From an uncultured Nitrososphaeraceae archaeon (GTDB lineage: Archaea > Thermoproteota > Nitrososphaeria > Nitrososphaerales > Nitrososphaeraceae), in contig CAWGVG010000009.1 in the NCBI GenBank assembly GCA_963825865.1, positions 13,289-77,288 of the forward strand: DNA of 64,000 nt. Direction: 5' to 3'. Positions within the stretch are counted from its first letter, which is position 1. Each line of letters begins with the position of its first letter. A program made the position numbers and the translations under genes. The notes under the pieces were generated by a model. That model did not search any database and was not told the DNA's origin. It saw only the letters and a list, made by a program, of their open reading frames with translations. Below are positions 9 through 28,530 of this stretch, one piece after another.

Positions 9-329
9 ATGAACAACACAAGAACTCTAGCAATAGTTGCTGTCTTAACAGCAGCAACATTAGTAGTAGGACTAACAGTCGGAGCAGCAACGCCATCAGC
101 ATTTGCTGGTGGGAATAAAGAAAGACAGGACAAATACATGAAAGGAGGACATGATGATTACAAGAAAGCAAGACAAACTAATGGAAATGATGGCGCTAAG
201 GCGAATGGTAACACAGTTACCGTCCAGGCAGCCAAACAACACGGCATAGTGAGTGGATTTGATAACACAGCAGAACAAGAGGCTCAAAACCTGATATGTA
301 CCTCATCCAAGTTCAACCTGTGTAAGTGA
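9..329 (+). CDS. Small secreted/exported protein (signal peptide); C-terminus possibly frameshifted
   Basis: Basic-hydrophobic N-terminus MNNTRTLAIVAVLTAATLVVG...SAFA; low-complexity body. Confidence 0.6.
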   Translation: MNNTRTLAIVAVLTAATLVVGLTVGAATPSAFAGGNKERQDKYMKGGHDDYKKARQTNGNDGAKANGNTVTVQAAKQHGIVSGFDNTAEQEAQNLICTSSKFNLCK

Positions 330-610
330 AGGCGAGCGAAACTAACGCAACTAACGCAACTGACAACAACAATGATGGCGGCCCCGCTGGCGATGGCAAC
401 GGATAATAGTATAAAGTGGATCACAGGCAGGATCATTTTAACTAATTAATCAAAATGCCTTGAGAGAGGGAATAAGAAGCCTATCCCATTTATTTTTTAT
501 AAAAAATACAATACAATAAACAAATTTAAATAGAAAGATGTATAATGTATATTGCTTATCTTTTCTCTATGTATTAGATTTGTTGGCTCATAATTAAATT
601 ACACACTTTT

Positions 611-871
611 TTAATTTATTAAAAGTGACAAATTACATTCTTGGCAAAAGTAGCAAAGCCCATTAAAATCAGATGATAATGACATTATATCATAACAGCG
701 AGGACATTCGATTTCCTGTTCTAAATCTTGCAGCATTTTCTTTTCTCCCTTGTTATCCTCAATTTCTTTCACATTTTGCAAAGGATTAAGATCGACTTGT
801 TGTGGTTGCTGTTGCTGCTGATGCTGCTGCTGCAATAGCAATTTCTTGCTCCTCATTTTTTTGACTAGCAC
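611..871 (-). CDS. Small Zn-ribbon protein with poly-Q, divergent from the radA cassette
   Basis: CPRC and CQEC pairs in the C-terminal half. Confidence 0.6.
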   Translation of the reverse strand: MLVKKMRSKKLLLQQQHQQQQQPQQVDLNPLQNVKEIEDNKGEKKMLQDLEQEIECPRCYDIMSLSSDFNGLCYFCQECNLSLLIN

Positions 872-1070
872 TGATTGGCTTGAGTTACTATTATGTCCTG
901 AATCACTATAAGGGGAGGAAGTCTCTACTTGTATTGTACCTAATTAGAATGGTATATTACGATCAATGTACCTCTCTCCCCCTGTACCCAAGTAGCTTTC
1001 TTAGTTATATGCAAGACAAAGTCAATGCAATATCAAGAGGTCAGATAAAATCACGTCTCATGTCAGTGAA

Positions 1071-2149
1071 TTGCGGCTAGAGGACCTACCTGATGTTGAA
1101 CCATATTTGATAAATAAACTAAAAAGAGCTGGAATACAATCAGTTTTAGACCTAGCCGCATCAATCCCCATTGAACTTGCAGGAGGAGGAGATTATATCG
1201 ATGATGACAACTCCGCAATTACAGCTGACATAGAGACAATATCACAACTTGTAGGAAAGGCCAAAAAGGCCCTTGTAGGTTTCGGCGTACTTAATAAAGA
1301 GTTCTGTACAGCTGAAGAGTTTCTTGAAAAAAGGAACAATCTCGTCAGATTTACAACAGGATCTGTAAACCTGGATGCATTTTTGAAAGGTGGAATAGAA
1401 TCACAAGCAATTACAGAGATTGCTGGGGAATTTGGTTCAGGAAAAAGTCAGTTATGTCATACTTTATGCGTTACTGCTGCTGGCTAATAAGGAGAAAGGA
1501 AAACGAGTGGGAGGAGCAGTAGCAGGAGACCTTAACAGGAATAATAATAATAATATAATATTCATAGATACAGAAAACACCTTCAGGCCAGAGAGAATTC
1601 ACCAGATAGCTGAAGGCAGAGGTCTCGAGCCAGAGGAAATAATGAAAAGAGTGTTTGTATGCAAAATATACAATAGTGCTCATCTTGAAGCTATAATAAA
1701 AAATCTTGGCAAGTCTATAGAACATTACAAAGCCAAGCTTGTCATAATTGATAGCATTATCTCGCTTCACAGAGCAGAATTTCCAGGAAGGGAAACTCTG
1801 GCTGAAAGACAGCAGAGGCTCAATGTTATGCTACATAGACTGATAAGACTAGCAGAAATTTACAATGTCGCAGTAGTTCTTACAAATCAAGTTCAGTCAC
1901 AACCAGATAATTTCTTTGGCGGTATTGGTGGTGGAAACGATCCAACGTGCGGCTGGTGGTAATATAATGGGACATGCTTCTACATACAGGATTTTTCTTA
2001 GAAAGGCTGGACGTAATAGAATAGCAATAATGCTTGATTCGCCACACCACGCATACGGTCAAGCTAAGTTTACAATAAGTGAAAAAGGAGTCCAAGATAC
2101 TGACGAGGAGGAGAAAGCAAGATCAGGGAAAGCAGTAACAATACAGTGA
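1071..2149 (+). CDS. radA: RadA/Rad51-family recombinase paralog, split over 3 ORFs by two frameshifts
   Basis: N-terminal HhH-like [16 protein letters not shown]; [17 protein letters not shown]; Walker [10 protein letters not shown]; [12 protein letters not shown]; Walker B LVIIDS; [10 protein letters not shown]; [12 protein letters not shown]; LDSPH. Confidence 0.9.
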
Positions 2150-2185
2150 GTCTGGCTGGTAGGTAGGAGGTAGTAGCCTAGCAAC

Positions 2186-4072
2186 ATGACCCCTGGAGAC
2201 AACAACATATTACGGACTATTCCTCAGGAAAAAGATTATCCTCTTGATCCAAATACAATTCCCGTACCACCATCATCCCAGCAGCCAAGACCGCAGGTAA
2301 CATTATCCGAATTAATTCCAGGGAAATATGTCTCTACTAGCGCAAGAGTAGTTTATTTAAAGACCATTGAAAGACAGGATGCTCTTGGGAGTAAGGTGCT
2401 ATTTTCTGGAATATTAGAGGATTCTACTTTCAAAGTTCCTTTTATTAGTCACAGGATTTCATATCCTTTGATAAGGAACTCTGTCTACAAATTCAACTCT
2501 GCTTATGTACATGAATTTTCGTCCTCAGATAAATCGCTTTTACTAGTAATAACAGAGCACACAAAGATAGACTCCAAGAATATTGAAGAATACAGAGAAT
2601 TTATTTGGAGTCCCAAGATTGAGTCAATAAAAAGGCCAGTTAGAAACCTTACTTTGCAGGGATTAATCACAACAGTACATAGTAATTCTGGGCTAGTCAA
2701 AAGATGTAACAAATGCAAATCAATAATCTATGATTCGTGTCCCAGTAAATGTCCTGAAGAGGAAGGGTGGGGTTGGGACCTCAGAGTGTCCTCAAGGCTC
2801 TACGACGGTTCAGGCGCTATTAAGATGGTTTTGACAAAGGATATTGCATCAAAGGTCTTACACATGAATTTAGCAGAGTTAATTTTACTTGCAACAACAA
2901 CATCGCACAGTAGTATTCCAGCCCAAAGATACAGCAACGGCCAAAACCATCACCAATTTCAACCACCATCTGTATTTACGATAAGGATACCGGATAGCAT
3001 CGATATAATAGAGGCAGTAACAGAGAACAATATTTTGTCGTCAACTTATAGAAGCAGTGAAAAGCTCATAGTAACTGATGGACGAAACCTTGTCTACTTT
3101 CCACCAAATGAGGAGAATGAGCAAAAGTTCTCAGAATCTGTCAAGAGGCCATTAAAGGCATCTGATGTAGAGGATAAAAAGATAATCAAAAGGCTGGTTG
3201 AAAAAGCACTTGACATTAGCCTAAGAAAAGTTACTGGCAAAAGGATGATGCAGGGGATTTATCTCCTTGAAGAGCCTATTTCCCTTTATAGATGTGAAAG
3301 GGCGAAACTATACCTTGGATTTTCAGTTAAGTTGAATATAAAAGAAAAGGAAAAAGAACAACAAGATAACGCGGCAGTTGTAACAACGACGACTGCTGTA
3401 ATTGAGACTACTCCACAAGCCCATGTTAGAGAAAGCGTGCTTGATTATATTAAAATGAGAAGGGAGCGTGGTGCATCTGCAAATGCCATTATACGTAACT
3501 TGTTAACATATAGAAATAAAGTGGTTGTGGCGCCATCTGGAAATTACGGTAGTATTGTTGATGTAATCATAAGAAAGGCAGAAACCCAACTCGTTTCAGA
3601 CACCGACAAGAGAAACTTGGTAGAATTCTGGAAACAGATCTATGGTATTGACATATCATCTGACGAAATTCCACTACTAAAAGTAAAGATGATGAATTCT
3701 GAGAATACCTTTACCTATCCCCCAAGTATGTGCTTTTTTGGGAGCGAATCTCTAATTATTCAAGCAGACGTTCAAAAATTCATTGAGAGCAAAAAGTCCA
3801 CACTCAAAGCAAGAATGGATGACACTATCAAAAAGGCAATCATAACACAAGATCTGACGATTGGACCTACAAAACTAGAATTTGATGAGGAACAGAATGG
3901 TTCACAAGGGCAGCGGCAGCCAGGTGACATTCAAAGCCACATTCTGCAAGAAATAAGACAGAAATTATTTGGGAGGAACGTTACAGCTAGAGGTTCAATC
4001 ATGTTTGTTCATGATGAGCTTTGGTTCTTTCCATACCAATTGAGAGCTTTCATAGAATGTGGATGGTCATGA
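2186..4072 (+). CDS. RPA-like OB-fold/Zn-finger protein with an inserted Argonaute-like N-L1-PAZ-L2 region
   Basis: Uninterrupted 628-aa ORF. OB1 aa ~37-130 (ARVV..SGILEDST); OB2 with SGLVKRCNKC..C...C..DLRVSSRLYDGSG; PAZ-like ESVLDYI...LVEFWKQIYGIDI...IPLLKV...YPPSMC; terminal EIRQKLFGRNVTARG completes OB2. Confidence 0.75.
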   Translation: MTPGDNNILRTIPQEKDYPLDPNTIPVPPSSQQPRPQVTLSELIPGKYVSTSARVVYLKTIERQDALGSKVLFSGILEDSTFKVPFISHRISYPLIRNSVYKFNSAYVHEFSSSDKSLLLVITEHTKIDSKNIEEYREFIWSPKIESIKRPVRNLTLQGLITTVHSNSGLVKRCNKCKSIIYDSCPSKCPEEEGWGWDLRVSSRLYDGSGAIKMVLTKDIASKVLHMNLAELILLATTTSHSSIPAQRYSNGQNHHQFQPPSVFTIRIPDSIDIIEAVTENNILSSTYRSSEKLIVTDGRNLVYFPPNEENEQKFSESVKRPLKASDVEDKKIIKRLVEKALDISLRKVTGKRMMQGIYLLEEPISLYRCERAKLYLGFSVKLNIKEKEKEQQDNAAVVTTTTAVIETTPQAHVRESVLDYIKMRRERGASANAIIRNLLTYRNKVVVAPSGNYGSIVDVIIRKAETQLVSDTDKRNLVEFWKQIYGIDISSDEIPLLKVKMMNSENTFTYPPSMCFFGSESLIIQADVQKFIESKKSTLKARMDDTIKKAIITQDLTIGPTKLEFDEEQNGSQGQRQPGDIQSHILQEIRQKLFGRNVTARGSIMFVHDELWFFPYQLRAFIECGWS

Positions 4073-4915
4073 CGTAAGAATGAGCATTTATACAATCAAT
4101 GAACCAAACAATAATAATAATCAAATCTCCTTTGAAATGTATTCGGCCTTAGAGCAATTTAATGAACAGAGAAACACCTTAAAGATGACTACTGGATCTG
4201 CAGACCTTGACTCGTTAATAGATGGTATACAAGAAGGGTTGTTCTATCTATTTTATGGCAACAACCATGCAGTACAGGATTCCCTTGTGTACAGATTCCT
4301 TGTGAACTGTGTACTGCCAATAAAACAAAAACATGGTTTTGAATCAATGGGAGTTTGTTTTAATAATGCAGAATATTACAATAGTAGAAAGACATCTCTT
4401 AGCCCAGAAAAGTTAGGAGTTGCAGCAAAATGTGCTAGCATCGATCCAAAGATTGTTTTTAAGAACTTGTACATCCATACATGCATATAATGAGCAGCAA
4501 CAGCTATTGGTTGCAGAACAGGTTGCTGACCTAATAGAATCTAACAAGGACATCAAGTCTGCTAGTAGTTAATAGATTAACAAGATTTTTCAAAGAATCA
4601 AAAAAGAAAATGGAAACCGCCAATGTCTTGAAACAGGTTGTAGGAATAATTTGCAAGGCTTGTGCTAAGAACAAAGTAGCACTAGTATGCACTGGTGATT
4701 CAAATTTAACAAGTAAAGGTGTAATACCAAGGCCCACGGGGGGAATATACCTAAAGCATGCAGCAAATGTGATTGTACATATTAAAGAGTATCCTAACAG
4801 TACTGCTGCCATTCCTTCATTTAAGGCAACATTAGTTAAACATCAGTATATGAAAACTCCAAAATCAGCAATTCTTTACCTTAGAAAGTGTGGAGGAATG
4901 ATGCTTTTAGATTGA
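4059..4915 (+). CDS. Inactivated RadA/RecA-fold protein (frameshifted; ORFs 4059-4490 and 4610-4915 plus intervening sequence)
   Basis: MTTGSADLDSLIDGIQEG is RadA-like, but the Walker A position reads FYGNNHAVQD (no GKT/S) and the Walker B position reads LLVVN; C-terminal PTGGIYLKHAANV and ATLVKH. Confidence 0.75.
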
Positions 4916-4933
4916 TGTGGCGGTGTTGGAGAT

Positions 4934-5306
4934 ATAGGCAGAATAACGCCATCATTTCGTCAGTTATATGAAGAAACGATATCAGAGCTAAGAATGGAGC
5001 TGCAGGCAGCACTTGTAGATTTAGGTCATAAGAGTGCATTTGAATTGCTGTTAAAGGAAGCCTGGAATCCAGAACAGGCTGCTATGGGTAATTCTACACT
5101 TACCAACGGTTAGTGACAAACTAAATGTCATGGCATCAATACACAATAGAAAGCTTATTGCAGTATTGGCAAAGGAATTGAAGGAAAAGGATGTTGAGAT
5201 AGAGGAACTCAAGCAGAATATCACGTTACTTCAAGATAAATTAAATGACATACACATGGAAATGAAACCCAAGGGAGACAAGCAACTACAGCAACAGCAA
5301 CAGTAG
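4934..5306 (+). CDS. Small helical PolB2-associated-type protein (arCOG07300-like); apparent ATA start; one +1 indel near 5100; absent from the ORF track
   Basis: Manual translation (I/M)GRITPSFRQLYEETISELRMELQAALVDLGHKSAFELLLKEAW; 373 nt versus 372 nt for the intact paralog at 27163-27534. Confidence 0.75.
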
Positions 5307-5337
5307 TAGGAATAATTGGAGCCATAATATAATAACA

Positions 5338-7785
5338 ATGTCAAGTTGTACCGGCTGGCTCTTTGATATTTCTATAGAACATAATCAAGCTGTCCTGTGG
5401 ATAAAAACTATCGATAGACAGATCCTTAAGCTAATAGACACTTATCAGCCAAGGTTCTACATATTACCTAAAAATGAAACTGATGGATTACATCTTTTCC
5501 AAATATTATCTCAACAACCCATAGTGGCTAAAGTTAGATGGGAGGAGGACAAGCTTACAAATCTTTTTGATCATGATTGCACTACAACAAAAAAGAAAAA
5601 ACTAATTTGTGTTTATCCACAATCCACACAGTATTATGCGCCCATTCTAAAAATATTAGAAAAAGACCAGCGAGTCAAGCAATTGTTCAATACAGATCTC
5701 TCACATATCCAGCAATATTTGTTTACCAAATTGAGAATTGAACCTACAAGCAAAGTTGAAGTCGAGTATGAGGGTACTAAGTTACTTAGAATAAGCAAAA
5801 TTGATGATGAACAAGAGGTATCTCCACCGCCCTTTTCATTACTATATTTTGACGTTCAGACATTTTCAGGAAAATTTACTTTTGAAGATCCGATTAGAAT
5901 GATAAAGGTTAGGTATGAAATTGGTGATGCAAAGGAATGGAACATGTTTCATTCCAAAGCAATGCAGAAAACATCATCCTTCAGGATTTCTCTAATTACG
6001 TGCTAGATAAAGATCCAGACATTATTGTTTGCATAGAGCGAATCTGAGAGTAAAATATTTCATTACCTATTTACACGAATAAAGAAACTTGGGCTTGACT
6101 TGCAACTTGGGAGAGAGGGCTCAGTAAAGGATCTCATGAATTTAAAGCGCCCAATGTCCAGAGTGGATCAAAGGTAGAATTTGCATTGAAAGCAGATGAT
6201 GGTAATGGTGGGATTAATAGACAACATTCAACATTTGATAATTTTGGGCTTGCAGGATTAATAGAAAGATCAAAGTTCGGTTTCGTTCCTTTGAGAATAG
6301 CTGCAAGATATGGTATAAACCGTCTAATAGATAGCAGAAACTGTTATCAATTAATCCAGAGAGGCTTTGTTATTTCAAAGAATAATCATTCTGGTGGAAG
6401 CAAGCAATAGCAACAACAACCATGAACGCATCAGGACTTTAGAGGAACTAGTCTCAAGGGATAAGGGCGGTATGATAATTTCTCCTCAGGTAGGCCTGCA
6501 TGAAAATGTTGTATCACTAGATTATGACAGCGAATACGCAAATCTAATAGTGAATCACAATCTAAGCTATGAAACTGTTACTTTACAGCAAGATGGAGTA
6601 GTCGTAGTACTACAACAATCCAATGACAACGAAGAAAGGCTTACTGCCAACAGTAGTGGAGAAATTTCTCAAAAGACGGCTCTATTTCAAGAGACTATTA
6701 AAAGAACTATTCAAAAGAGAGCATGGAGTCTCTCTGGTGCGAACAGCGTGTCAATTCACTAAAGAACATACTTGTTTGTCTTTATGGTACAACTGGTTCC
6801 CTTTGGAATAGATATGGTAATGTGCTTGTATTTGAGGAAATTAACAAGATATCTAGGGAAATATTGATAAAAACAAAGGATATTGTTCAGCAGTTAGGCT
6901 ATGAGCTGGTATATGCTGATACAGACTCGGTATTTATTAAAAAGAAAGATGCCGCTACTGCTGACACAGACCACAAGCAGTTATGAACAAGTTATAGATA
7001 TGCTGTGCAAAGAAACAGGCCTTTCAATCTCTATTGATTATAATTATAAGTTTTTAGTTCTATTACCTTGGAAGCTGACGAAAACATAGAGGCACTCAAG
7101 CATTACTATGGGATTACGCAACAAGGAGAACTAGTTGTTAGAGGTATAGAAATTAGGAGACATGATATTCCAAACTTTATAAAACAATTTCAAACTGAAT
7201 TGCTATACACGCTTTTTGATTGTAAAGATTCAGCTGAGGTAGATAAGCAAAGGATATGAAAATGGTCTTTTATTGGTTACCAAGGCAATAGATAAAATTA
7301 TGACAGGTGAAGACTTTCACCAAGAGGATCTTGTAATCTCCAAGTTGCTTGGACAGGATATAGAAAAATACAAGAGCTTATTTCCTCATGTGTCCGCTGC
7401 CATTCAATTATTAAGCAATAAAGAGAGGAGGTAAATACCCAACAAAAGGCGACACTATCCAGTATATCTATACAAATTCAAAACACAACAATCCTCTTTG
7501 CAGAGTTGTACCTTTAGAGATTTTACAAAAAGAGGAGGAAAAAGGAAAGACAGCAAGGAGAATGGTAAAACTCTGAATTATGACAAGGATAAGTACAGAG
7601 AAATGATACTTGATGCTGCAGAAACTGTTCTAGGTTATTTCGGCTTTAATAGGACTGTTTATGGAAATCCTGGGAACGATAGAAAGAAAAAGAGAAAATG
7701 GTATGAGGAATTGTATGAAGAAAGAACAAAAGATATTCAAGCAGAGATGATGATGGAAAAACAACAACATGGTAAAGCCCAATAA
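5338..7785 (+). CDS. polB: Family B DNA polymerase (PolB2-like context), multiply frameshifted in this assembly
   Basis: GWLFDI start; ExoI-position FDVQT; DKGGMIISPQVGLHENV; motif A LDYDSEYANLI..NLSYET; motif B KNILVCLYG; motif C YADTDS; KHYYG; RGIEIRRHD; YDKDKY. Confidence 0.9.
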
Positions 7786-24752: not shown

Positions 24753-27131
24753 TTACAACAGCTCCGCTTGGATATCTCTTGTTCTTTCTTTATGCAATTC
24801 CTCATACCATTTTCTTTTTTTCTTTCTATTATTCCTAGGATTTTCATAAACAGTCCTATCAAAGCCAAAATACCCTAGAACAGTTTCTGCGGCATCAAGT
24901 ATCATTTCTCTGTACTTATCCTTGTCATAATTCAGAGTTCTCTTTTCCTCCTTACCGTCTTTTTCTCCATTTTGCAAAATCTCTAAAGGTACAACTCTGC
25001 AAAGGGGATTTTTGTGTTGTGAGTTTGTGTAAATATACTGAATAGTATCACCTTTTGTTGGATACTTTCCTCCTTTATTGTTTAATTGATAGCATTGAAT
25101 AGCAGCAGAGACATGAGGAAATAAGCTCTTGTACTTTTGCATATACTGTCCAAGCAACTTGGAGATTACAAGATCCTCTTGGCGAATCTCTTCACCTGTC
25201 ATAATTTTATCTATTGCCTTGGTAACCAGTAAAAGAGCATTTTGATATCCTTTGTTTACCACTTCAACTGAATCTTTGCAATCAAAAAGTGTGTATAGCA
25301 ATTCAGTTTGAAATTCTTTTATAAAGTTTGGCCTGACTCTTTGGATAATCTATCTACAACTTGTAGATAATCGCTTATTGTTTTTGTAGTTGTACCAGGC
25401 AGCAGCAGCAGCAGCATCTTTCCTTTTAATAAATACAGAGTCTGTATCTGCATATACCAGCTCATAGCCTAACTGCTGAACAATATCCTTTGTTTTTATC
25501 AATATTTCCCTAGATATTTTGTTTATTTCCTCAAAAGCAAGCACATTACAATATCTATTCCAGAGAGAACCAGTTGCACCATAAAGACAAACTAGTATGT
25601 TCTTTAGTGAGTCAACACGCTGTTGACACCAGAAAGACTCTATGCTCTCCTTTGGTAGTTCTTTTAATAGTCTCTTAAAATAGAGCCGTCTTTTGAGAAA
25701 TTTTTCCACTACTGTTGGCAGTAAGCCTTTCTTTTCGTTGTCATTAGATTGTTGTACCTATGACTACTCCTAACCCTTGTTCTTGCTCCAAGGTAACAGT
25801 TTCATAGCTTATTGTGATTTACTATTAGATTTGCGTATTCGCTGTCATAATCTAATGCGACAACGTTTTCATGCAGGCCTACCTGAGGGGAAATTATCAT
25901 ACCGCCCTTATCCCTTGATACCAGTTCCTCTAAAGTCCTAATGCGTTCATGGTTGTTATTATTGTTCTTGCTTCCACCAGAATGATTATTCTTTGAAATA
26001 ACAAAGCCTCTCTGGATTAATTCATAACAGTTTCTGCTATCTATTAGACGGTTTATACCATACCTTGAAGCCATCCCCAAAGGAACGAAACCGAACCTTA
26101 ATCTCTCTATTAATCCTGCAAATCCAAAACCATTAAATGCTGGGTGTTGTTGTTGTCTATTGATCCCACCACTACGATCACTGCTTTCAAGGCAAATTCT
26201 GCCTTTGATCCACTCTGATAATGGGCGCTTTAAATTCATGAAATCGTCTGCTGAGACCTCTCTACCTAGTTGCAAGTTAAGCCCAAGTCTCTTTATTCGT
26301 GTAAATAGGTAATGAAATATTTTACTCTCAAACTCTCCCACGCAAACAATAATGTCTGGATCTTTATCAATCACATAATTAGAGAAATCCTGAATGATGG
26401 TATTTTCTGCATTACTTTGGAATGAAACATGTTCTCCATTCTCCTTTGAATCACCGCTTTCATACCTAACCTTTATCATTCTAATCGGATCATCAAAAGT
26501 AAATTTTCCTGAAAATGTCTGAACGTCAAAATATAGTAATGAAAAGGGCGGTGGAGATACCTCTTGTTCATCATCAATTTTGTTTATTTTAAGTACCTTA
26601 GTACCATCGGTACTCGACTTTAACTTTGCTTGTGGGTTCAATTTTCAATTTGGTAAACAAATATTGCTGGATATGAGAGAGATCTGTATTGAACAATTGC
26701 TTGACTCTCTGGTCTTTTTCTAATATTTTTAGAATGGGCGTATAATACTGCGTGGATTGTGGGTAAACACAAATTATACCAATTAACATTAATTCGCTAA
26801 CACTTTGCTAATATTTTGAGTTGAAATACGTCGATAGTTGTTAGCGAACTTTTGTTAACTGGTATAGTTTTTTCTTTTTTGTTGTAGTATTATCATGATC
26901 AAAAAGATTTGTAAGCTTGTCCTCCTCCCATCTAACTTTGGCCACTATGGTTTGTTGAGATAATATTTGGAAAAGATGTAATCCATCAGATTCATTTCTG
27001 GGTAATATGTAGAACCTTGGCTGATAAGTGTCTATTAGCTTAAGGATCTGTCTATCGATAGTTTTTATCCACAGGACAGCTTGATTATGTTCTATAGAAA
27101 TATCAAAAAGCCAGCCGGTACAACTTGACAT
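24753..27131 (-). pseudogene. polB: Second family B polymerase copy, disrupted by a MITE insertion and a ~150-bp internal deletion
   Basis: Collinear with 5338-7785; same motifs (DYDSEY, YADTDS); lacks the segment with KHYYG/RGIEIRRHD. Confidence 0.9.
26777..26864. mobile_element. 88-bp MITE with TA target duplication (IS630/Tc1-mariner-type signature)
   Basis: 26-bp TIRs (22/26) TACCAATTAACATTAATTCGCTAACA; TA at 26775-26776 and 26865-26866; the paralog has an empty site with a single TA near 5602. Confidence 0.92.
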
Positions 27132-27162
27132 TGTTATTATATTATGGCTCCAATTATTCCTA

Positions 27163-27534
27163 CTACTGTTGCTGTTGCTGTAGTTGCTTGTCTCCCTTGG
27201 GTTTCATTTCCATGTGTATGTCATTTAATTTATCTTGAAGTAACGTGATATCCTGCTTGAGTTCCTCTATTTCAACATCCTTTTCCTTTAATTCCTTTGC
27301 CAATACTGCAATAAGCTTTCTATTGTGTATTGATGCCATGACATTTAATTTGTCACTAACCGTGGGTAAGGTAGAATTACCCATAGCAGCCTGTTCTGGA
27401 TTCCAGGCTTCCTTTAACAGCAAGTCAAATGCACTTTTATGGCCTAAATCTACAAGCGCTGCCTGGAGCTCTGTTCTTAGCTCTGATATCGTTTCCTCAT
27501 ATAGTTGACGGAATGATGGCGTTATTCTACCTAT
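27163..27534 (-). CDS. Small PolB2-associated-type protein, copy 2 (123 aa if it starts at ATA 27534)
   Basis: Open frame (I/M)GRITPSFRQLYEETISELRTELQAALVDLGHKSAFDLLLKEAW...; in-frame TGA two codons upstream. Confidence 0.8.
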   Translation of the reverse strand: MGRITPSFRQLYEETISELRTELQAALVDLGHKSAFDLLLKEAWNPEQAAMGNSTLPTVSDKLNVMASIHNRKLIAVLAKELKEKDVEIEELKQDITLLQDKLNDIHMEMKPKGDKQLQQQQQ

Positions 27535-27571
27535 ATGTCAACACCCCAAATCAATTTTTTTGGTTCAGAAT

Positions 27572-28124
27572 TCAATCTAAAAGTGTTATTCCTCCACTAA
27601 ACTTTCTAAGGTAAAGAACTGTTGATTTGGGAGTTTTCATATACTGATGTTTAACCAATGTCGCTTTAAATGAAGGAATGGCAGCAGTACTGTTAGGATA
27701 TTCTTTAATATGTACAATCACATTTGCAGCATGTTTTAGGTATATTCCCCCTATGGGCCTTGGTATTACACCTTTGCTTGTCAAATTCGCATCACCAGTG
27801 CATACTAGTGCTACTTTACCCTTAGCACAAGCCTTGCAAACTATCCCTACAACCTGCTTCAGGACATTGGCAGTTTCCATTTTCTTTTTTGAGTCTTAAA
27901 ATCTTGTTAATCTATTAATTACTAGCAGACTTGATATCCTTGTTAGATTCTATTAGGTCAGCAACCTGTTCTGCAACCAATAGCTGTTGCTGGTCGTTAT
28001 ATGCTGTATGTATATACAAGTTCTTAAAAACAATCTTTGGATTTATGCTAGCACATTTTGCTGCAACTCCTAACTTTTCTGGGCTAAGAGACGTCTTTCT
28101 ACTGTTGTAATAATCTACATCCAA
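27572..28124 (-). pseudogene. 5'-truncated copy of the inactive RadA-like gene
   Basis: Matches ~4370-4915 from YYNSRKTSLSPEK onward; no homology upstream of ~28120. Confidence 0.85.
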
Positions 28125-28530
28125 TTTTTCTATACAAGCCTTTTGTTGAGAACAGTTTATTTCCTTTCAAACCCGGCGAAGATTTGCTCGTAAAGATAGG
28201 TAACCACAAGCTAAGTGTTACAAAACTAATAGATTAAAAATACAGTACAATAGTGATAAATAAAAGGCAAGCTAGTTAATAAACGATAACAATAAAAATT
28301 TGCAAAATATACAATACTTCAATTGCCTTGTGCTAACATGATTACGGAAAAACTAAGTTGGAGTTAGTTGATAGTGTAAGAAAAATCATTTATAATTAAT
28401 TTGATTTTAATGAGCCCTTTTAAGAAACAAAACTATATTTTGTGAAGACACATAGTGTTCTCGTTTACTTATAAGCATTCATTAGTATCATATGAATTCG
28501 TAAATAAGATGTTGTGATATAATTATTATT

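Follow-up and report, generated by a model that had tools for sequence, protein, structure and literature searches.

Archaeal zinc-finger RPAs such as P. abyssi Rpa1 (PDB 8oej and 8aaj) have two consecutive OB folds, the second of which carries a C4-type Zn finger and a helical element between strands β3 and β4. In the P. abyssi protein, this β3-β4 helical insertion has been reported to contact the backbone of single-stranded DNA (ssDNA) (PMC10122647). Long Argonautes (KmAgo, 8xhv; MILI, 9ij4; SIWI, 9nhd; HrAgo1, 8r3z; human AGO1 and AGO2) have a lobe made of the N, L1, PAZ, and L2 parts, in addition to MID and PIWI domains. Elsewhere, to our knowledge, PAZ and the N-lobe of Argonautes belong to proteins of guide-directed silencing and defence. 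Here we describe a gene that appears to combine the two. It lies at positions 2186 to 4072, forward strand, of a 64,000-nucleotide stretch of DNA from an uncultured Nitrososphaeraceae archaeon (contig CAWGVG010000009.1; the whole stretch is called the window below) and encodes a protein that we call RPA-PAZ. This is by its sequence a divergent RPA-type protein with two OB folds and a Zn finger, a putative ssDNA binder. It has a lobe of ~345 residues, Argonaute-like by its predicted structure, inserted in the β3-β4 element of the second OB fold (OB2).

The open reading frame (ORF) of RPA-PAZ runs uninterrupted through 628 codons, and the part before the insert is recognizable as an RPA. Two NCBIfam replication factor A models matched residues 37 to 233 and 47 to 231 (E ~3e-16). 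A profile built from 18 diverse family members aligned with a plain RPA from Geoglobus over residues 34 to 242 (hhalign probability 97.9%, E = 5.5e-13), and a Foldseek search with the full-length model returned P. abyssi RPA (8oej) as the top PDB match (E = 9.5e-10). The NCBIfam scores, 59.8 and 59.4 bits, fall far under the curated equivalog cut-offs of 556 and 447, so RPA-PAZ is a divergent relative rather than the housekeeping orthologue. The first OB fold, to which both the NCBIfam models and the Geoglobus alignment extend, occupies residues ~37 to 130 (2294 to 2575, forward strand), with modeled strands at 49 to 130. The first part of OB2 covers residues ~143 to 237 (2612 to 2896, forward strand) and includes strands 1 to 3, the start of the β3-β4 helices, and a Zn finger, C174-x2-C177-x7-C185-x3-C189, that is apparent in the sequence itself. 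None of the 18 diverse members departs from C174, C177, or C185, and the fourth Zn ligand is C or H.

The remainder of OB2 follows only near the C terminus. When RPA-PAZ was compared with the Geoglobus RPA by BLASTP, residues 17 to 236 aligned with RPA residues 104 to 304 (E = 5e-13), and the alignment then resumed colinearly, residues 583 to 603 matching RPA residues 310 to 330 (E = 0.03). Because these colinear segments flank the insert, we count ~346 residues in RPA-PAZ where the plain RPA has 5. The resumed segment is weak on its own and agrees with the model, which places a helix at 582 to 594 and strands at 598 to 608 and 611 to 622. This second part of OB2 (residues ~582 to 622; 3929 to 4051, forward strand; conservation, 0.80) contains a helix and what would be the last two strands of the fold, which likely close the OB2 barrel after the insert. 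The sequence-only reading that preceded this analysis had described the same uninterrupted ORF, the RPA OB folds with a Zn finger in its N-terminal part, and an OB2 whose pattern is interrupted and resumes near the C terminus, and these descriptions held up.

To examine the inserted residues, we modeled them on their own with AlphaFold2 from 18 sequences, which gave a mean predicted local distance difference test (pLDDT) score of 75.8 and a predicted template modeling (pTM) score of 0.67. All 46 PDB matches listed for a Foldseek search with this model were Argonaute or PIWI proteins (E = 6e-10 to 1e-7; 326 to 398 aligned columns). The template modeling (TM) scores, normalized to the query, were 0.52 for MILI and SIWI, 0.49 for KmAgo, and 0.48 for the Asgard HrAgo1. 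The modeled secondary structure runs in Argonaute order, with an N-like α/β unit, a long β-hairpin L1, PAZ, and two L2-like helices. The N-domain-like part corresponds to residues ~260 to 350 (2963 to 3235), with boundaries that we drew according to the secondary structure predicted for the insert, and the same model and the Foldseek alignments of the whole lobe place the L1-like hairpin region at residues ~351 to 417 (3236 to 3436). PAZ takes up residues ~418 to 520 (3437 to 3745), and a short pair of L2-like helices, at positions 288 to 315 of the insert, falls within residues ~521 to 566 (3746 to 3883); all four parts are on the forward strand. An insert in Argonaute order had been proposed from the sequence, and the predicted structure agrees with it; the L2-like part that had been proposed with it is there, in a shortened form of two helices only.

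Profile searches give a PAZ signal as well, one that for the window protein lies under the Pfam gathering cut-off. The Pfam PAZ model, which matches residues 462 to 519 of RPA-PAZ, was found in 26 of 29 family members at E ≤ 0.01 (best E = 4.6e-6) and in 13 of the 18 diverse members at E ≤ 1; a precomputed PF02170 annotation was present on 3 of the 120 homologues among the matches listed. Conservation within the protein is highest in PAZ, whose mean majority fraction is 0.83, against 0.79 to 0.81 for the OB folds. The aromatic residues F481, W482, Y486, and Y511, all within the stretch matched by Pfam, are invariant in the 29 members. When the language-model features of residues 255 to 575 were compared with those of protein clusters, the nearest clusters (scores of 0.94 to 0.91) carried PAZ, Dicer_platform, or DUF4708.

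RPA-PAZ therefore shares with long Argonautes a predicted N-L1-PAZ-L2 fold and a Pfam PAZ signal, but it differs from them in its short L2, in its sequence (10 to 13% identity), and in having the lobe inserted in another domain. There is no MID and no PIWI, the protein ending in OB strands, and RPA-PAZ is therefore not an Argonaute. The sequence-only reading had noted that the window holds no MID-PIWI gene. The same is true more widely, as the Pfam Piwi model had no match in the window's own genome (81.8% complete) or in any of 201 Nitrososphaeraceae genomes, 114 of them of high quality. When 1.84 billion representative proteins were searched with the profile of the insert, the best 150 of 166 matches had it only within the RPA-PAZ architecture or in short fragments, and no canonical Argonaute was among them. 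A parallel in domain arrangement is APAZ of the short pAgo systems, likewise a relative of the Argonaute N-lobe that occurs apart from MID-PIWI and is fused to another domain. As far as we know, APAZ lacks a PAZ and always works with an adjacent short pAgo, whereas RPA-PAZ has a PAZ and no PIWI gene accompanies it in the 201 genomes searched.

By language-model features only, the platform-PAZ cassette of Dicer and the DUF4708 proteins come nearest to the insert, and we treat this as a lead. No Dicer was among the 46 PDB matches listed, and neither the Dicer_platform nor the DUF4708 Pfam profile matched the window protein (E ≤ 10) or the 18 diverse members (E ≤ 1). The nearest clusters include eukaryotic, C18orf63-like DUF4708 proteins, some members of which carry PAZ, and these may be another PIWI-less PAZ family; a literature search on the function of DUF4708 turned up no paper. 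We also noticed two large proteins (P0248 and P0271; 1,497 and 1,670 residues) that match only positions ~242 to 269 of the insert profile, 8 to 9 times each, through a short, recurring motif that looks like the end of PAZ.

RPA-PAZ is a real and conserved family. We found 876 homologous proteins at E ≤ 1e-3; the 120 listed were 67 to 93% identical over 77 to 99% of the query length, and one independent metagenomic protein was 93% identical to the window protein over 99% of its length. Nearly all homologues came from soil metagenomes, and the few named ones were from Nitrososphaeraceae. The suggestion made from the sequence that the same fusion be sought in Nitrososphaeria bore fruit: RPA-PAZ was present in 38 of the 201 Nitrososphaeraceae genomes, distributed over 9 of 18 genera and often in several copies accompanied by fragments with stops. 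A sample of 151 genomes from the class contained it in 3, none of them among the 80 from the largest family. The tallies for the family take in two genomes flagged as unpublished (G307 and G223). The family extends to a second family of the class (genome G037) and to a distant family of the phylum (genome G688), and a phylum-wide sample searched with a divergent query gave 2 of 401 genomes, one of them the window's own. The divergent members, of 428 to 528 residues, keep the same layout. We considered whether the fusion might be a misassembly of two genes, the outcome that the sequence-only reading had named as fatal to it, and rejected this: full-length forms recur in many independent assemblies.

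We then looked at the genes that accompany RPA-PAZ. In contrast to archaeal RPA, it was seen without winged-helix or partner-subunit genes, and it belongs to a polymerase and recombinase operon, as an accessory protein that is not universal (38 of 201 genomes). The order of this cassette is RadA, RPA-PAZ, an inactive RadA, a small helical protein, and a family-B polymerase. Context was read from 39 public loci, which stem from a smaller number of genomes, are not independent of one another, and, given the query alignment, include close relatives only. RadA lay directly upstream of RPA-PAZ in 34 of the 39, and 4 of the other 5 had less than 210 nucleotides of upstream sequence. The inactive RadA lay downstream in 29 (7 of the other 10 end within 300 nucleotides), and the polymerase followed in 22. 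The genes overlap or abut; RadA and RPA-PAZ, for example, overlap by 4 nucleotides in locus L041. Across the 201 genomes, which are related and not independent, 33 had the small protein and 38 had RPA-PAZ; the two occurred together in 31, and 161 had neither.

The first RadA keeps its Walker A motif (GEFGSGKS), and its intact relatives score 395 bits with the NCBIfam RadA model, above the cut-off of 259. The second matches Pfam Rad51 (E = 5.8e-14 to 1.3e-16) and lacks Walker A, no G-x4-GK[ST] motif being present in the four sequences inspected. The small protein is a conserved ORF of 101 to 134 residues with an N-terminal motif common to two distant lineages, and it had no match in family profile searches. 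The polymerase was confirmed as family B; intact relatives have 735 to 772 residues, the motif YADTDS is kept, and the DxD motif is intact.

The last three of these genes match in order and content a published operon, the PolB2 "mutasome" operon iRadA-PPB2-PolB2, which likewise consists of an inactive RadA, a small helical protein, and a family-B polymerase (Makarova 2014, PMC4104785; Timinskas 2025, PMC11791011). Our small protein has the position of PPB2 (arCOG07300) and is a candidate homologue of it. Further points of likeness are an apparent iRadA-small-protein fusion in one genome and an Orc1/Cdc6 neighbor in one lineage. The same papers report an association of Orc1/Cdc6 with the PolB2 operon, and an intact DxD, as in our polymerase, has been reported in some TACK members of PolB2. 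The apparent fusion was seen in locus L043 (10909 to 12033; genome G037), where an iRadA-like protein of 375 residues has a C-terminal part that, by eye, repeats the pattern of the small protein; from its sequence it looks like an iRadA-PPB2-type fusion, and a second, free copy follows it. The Orc1/Cdc6 gene (Cdc6_lid, E = 2.4e-20) adjoins the operon of genome G688. What sets the RPA-PAZ cassette apart from the published operon is its two extra upstream genes, the active-type RadA and RPA-PAZ itself. The main texts of PMC4104785 and PMC11791011 make no mention of RPA, SSB, PAZ, or Argonaute; their supplementary neighborhood tables might list such genes. The sequence-only reading had spoken of the polymerase simply as PolB. 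We rejected the replicative PolB1 in view of the operon structure and of another open PolB frame, of 829 residues, elsewhere in the genome, and we read the gene instead as the last of a unit matching the PolB2 translesion operon.

A conserved proline-rich motif, DYPDPxTLPxPP, is present at residues 17 to 30 (2234 to 2275), in the low-confidence N-terminal tail of RPA-PAZ. It occurs in the Nitrososphaeria members, which also have RadA upstream, and is absent from divergent members, a relative of one of which has a RadA-less operon. The motif could be one for partner binding.

The copy of the cassette in the window appears to have decayed around its RPA-PAZ gene. On the forward strand, the cassette RadA (1098 to 2119), with Walker A present, has two frameshifts: Pfam Rad51 matches both pieces, and the gene falls into three frames when compared with the intact one of locus L050. 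Relative to L050, the inactive RadA paralogue (4122 to 4912) also has two frameshifts and the small helical protein in the PPB2 position (4934 to 5252) has one. The family-B polymerase (5332 to 7752), PolB2 type by context, is heavily disrupted: at least two frameshifts are present, and the stops add up to 15 when three overlapping high-scoring alignment segments are counted together. RPA-PAZ shows no frameshift or stop in the same comparison. All of these genes lie within a duplicated unit (580 to 7760, no strand assigned) that recurs on contig C10, at 91.6% identity over 7.2 kb; the C10 copy has decayed too, and there RPA-PAZ is broken, with 10 stops. A second, partial cassette in the window (24756 to 28160, reverse strand) has an iRadA remnant with stops, an intact small protein (a PPB2-like ORF of 124 residues at ~27178 to 27537), and a disrupted PolB, with no RadA and no RPA-PAZ. 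The whole genome (G000; 4.98 Mb) has 24 Pfam DNA_pol_B matches on at least 14 contigs, many of them short or with stops, and 9 matches to the small cassette protein. From these sequences, the cassette or its polymerase appears to have multiplied and decayed many times in this genome, where the cassette seems to be decaying still and RPA-PAZ is the only ORF of its copy left open.

Part of this damage may be artificial. Contigs from four soil studies, 90 to 99% identical to the window, lack its indels at 4482, 4558, 6405, and 7241, and the frameshifts may be either real pseudogene decay or assembly errors. All contigs compared in this way were DNA, and no RNA dataset was listed as containing the sequence. 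RPA-PAZ itself is touched at its very end: the ORF finishes with YQLRAFIECGWS, whereas all 28 aligned relatives finish with NQLQLS or similar. The last ~8 residues are aberrant because of a 1-nucleotide indel at 4043/4044, a base being missing there in the soil contigs of the four studies.

What might such a protein do? RPA binds ssDNA in the 5′-to-3′ direction with its Zn-finger OB fold on the 3′ side, and PAZ binds 3′ ends. By analogy with these proteins, RPA-PAZ would be an accessory subunit, binding both ssDNA and 3′ ends, of a damage-tolerance or recombination-dependent synthesis module, a function to which we give about an even chance; what is observed is the architecture, the fact that it is conserved, and the constant position of the gene in the operon. 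A length of ssDNA would be bound by the two OB folds, the Zn-finger fold being on the 3′ side. The groove is also where the lobe departs from OB2, which would allow PAZ to close off the bound strand at its 3′ end or to seize a primer end that is unpaired; the PAZ pocket, placed beside the groove on the 3′ side, would take hold of a free or unpaired 3′-OH. The end so gripped might be a resected or invading 3′ tail or the frayed primer terminus at a lesion. RPA-PAZ would then mark this end for the cassette RadA and for the PolB2-iRadA-PPB2 complex, which would extend it, and as a sensor of ssDNA and 3′ ends it would couple RadA filaments to the polymerase complex. E. coli Pol V, which is activated at the 3′ tip of a RecA filament, offers a functional analogy only: it too is a translesion polymerase working with a RecA-family protein, but it lacks an ssDNA- or 3′-end-binding subunit of its own. 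The Pol V mutasome (UmuD′2C-RecA) has been compared with PolB2 (PMC11791011). We propose a sensor because PolB2 has been described as an extender of distorted primer termini that is bound to iRadA by a RadA-filament-like contact (PMC11791011).

Several observations weigh against this reading. On the structural side, the Pfam PAZ match of the window protein (residues 462 to 519; E = 1.5e-4) scores 22.1 bits, under the gathering cut-off of 28.8. The full-length AlphaFold2 model is mediocre (pLDDT, 63; pTM, 0.44), and the best TM score of the insert is only 0.52, for a lobe that is supported by predicted structure. The Pfam profiles ArgoN, ArgoL1, and ArgoL2 matched neither the window protein at E ≤ 10 nor the 18 diverse members at E ≤ 1, and neither the protein nor the family profile picked up an RPA or Argonaute chain when PDB sequences were searched at E ≤ 10, so the N and L1 assignments follow from the predicted fold. 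On the genomic side, all four partner genes are disrupted in the window, and this copy therefore cannot hand anything to its own neighbors. A link to neighboring RadA and PolB genes, which the sequence-only reading had relied on, is borne out as a fixed association across the loci, with both genes frameshifted in the window. The operon of genome G688 holds a degraded RPA-PAZ, iRadA, the small protein, and PolB and has no RadA; RadA is therefore not a universal partner. The PolB2 label of the polymerase comes from operon structure only. RPA-PAZ was found in none of the 34 and none of the 37 genomes of two well-sampled genera, and a cassette present in several copies, and frequently broken, is not what one would expect of a repair operon. 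A complex prediction for RPA-PAZ (582 residues, 29 alignment rows) with the cassette RadA (335 residues, 13 rows) scored 0.00 twice and is evidence neither way.

The same genomic pattern would be explained if the five-gene cassette were a selfish or mobile replication-recombination module in which RPA-PAZ serves the copying of the element, for example by holding a 3′ end that primes copy-and-paste through recombination-dependent synthesis. Its patchy spread (38 of 201 genomes, 9 of 18 genera) would fit this, as would the many copies and fragments per genome: G257 has three loci, G201 has two and a fragment on a single contig, and the window's genome has material in at least four places. So too would flanking genes that vary between genomes, the duplication of the 7.2-kb unit at 91.6% identity, and a report that PolB2 has often been transferred among archaea (PMC11791011). 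However, neither the cassette nor the flanks examined showed an integrase, a transposase, or Cas1; the 10 flanking ORFs examined were housekeeping genes, such as thermosome, NadA, and a PRTase, or had no match. The ends of the duplicated unit (580 and 7760) have no terminal inverted or direct repeats, none of 83 candidate stretches was confirmed as a viral-contig relative, and the downstream trio corresponds to a damage-response operon already known from chromosomes. We consider a selfish module distinctly unlikely. Another idea, which leaves the family unaffected, is that the copy in the window is a relic, the last open ORF of a dying cassette, open by chance or through recent gene conversion. 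The lesions in all of its partners point that way, as do the 10 stops in RPA-PAZ on contig C10 and the altered last residues, which differ from those of the soil contigs and the 28 aligned relatives through the indel at 4043/4044. But RPA-PAZ has no disruption in 1.9 kb, against at least five in 2.2 kb of partner genes with PolB left aside (by a rough Poisson estimate, ~4 would be expected; P ~0.01), and its close match to an independent metagenomic protein weighs the same way. If the indels are assembly errors, as the soil contigs allow, the living organism could have all of the cassette intact. On balance, a relic seems unlikely.

Two other explanations concern the lobe itself. With the OB folds standing in for MID-PIWI, it could grip the 3′ end of a short guide, DNA or RNA, and direct RadA or the polymerase to a complementary sequence, in defence or targeted recombination. 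The retention of a whole N-L1-PAZ-L2 lobe rather than of PAZ alone, its position at the ssDNA groove of OB2, and the presence next door of a gene for a recombinase able to search for homology are in keeping with such a guide binder. Yet the cassette encodes no nuclease or other effector and matches a translesion-polymerase operon, we have no evidence of small nucleic acids, and the 5′-end-binding MID pocket that defines guide loading is absent; we find the idea highly improbable. The lobe could otherwise be a protein-protein scaffold or a structural spacer whose PAZ pocket no longer binds nucleic acid. PAZ scores under the Pfam cut-off, L2 is truncated, and there is a precedent in the short-Argonaute systems, in which APAZ N-lobe relatives without nucleic-acid end binding exist. 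Against this stands the fact that PAZ is the best-conserved segment and that its aromatics are invariant in the stretch matched by Pfam, and a scaffold is in our view very unlikely. Returning to the proposed 3′-end-binding subunit, a bolder version of it would see RPA-PAZ as a half-Argonaute without PIWI, in which the RPA OB folds replace MID-PIWI and the strand is held both along its body and by its 3′ end for presentation to the recombinase and the extender polymerase. This would be a use of the guide-holding lobe dedicated to repair and recombination, outside silencing and defence; the protein may be related to eukaryotic PAZ-like proteins (DUF4708/C18orf63) and may help the cassette to copy itself within genomes. 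We offer it as a speculation with a rather low chance of being right.

The combination of an RPA with an Argonaute lobe had been suspected from the sequence to be undescribed, and our search of open-access papers and bioRxiv agreed, finding no prior description of it. A whole Argonaute lobe would here be built into a genome-maintenance protein, in organisms in which no PIWI gene was found, which bears on the evolution and reuse of the lobe. If the proposed function is right, no ssDNA-binding protein before RPA-PAZ would have had a dedicated 3′-end reader, and the PolB2 translesion operon, for whose holoenzyme only models exist so far, would gain two unreported components, the active-type RadA and RPA-PAZ. 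Soil ammonia-oxidizing archaea have the family in abundance, and damage tolerance there may therefore differ from the Sulfolobus model.

Two small ORFs lie near the start of the window. One, of 86 residues (611 to 871, reverse strand), is inside the 7.2-kb unit and divergent from RadA. Its sequence shows two CxxC pairs as well as a run of glutamines, and it gave no family match. The other (9 to 329, forward strand), upstream of the cassette, encodes a small protein with a hydrophobic N terminus, and two paralogues of this protein lie upstream of the C10 copy, at 3354 to 3599 and 5152 to 5421 of locus L044.

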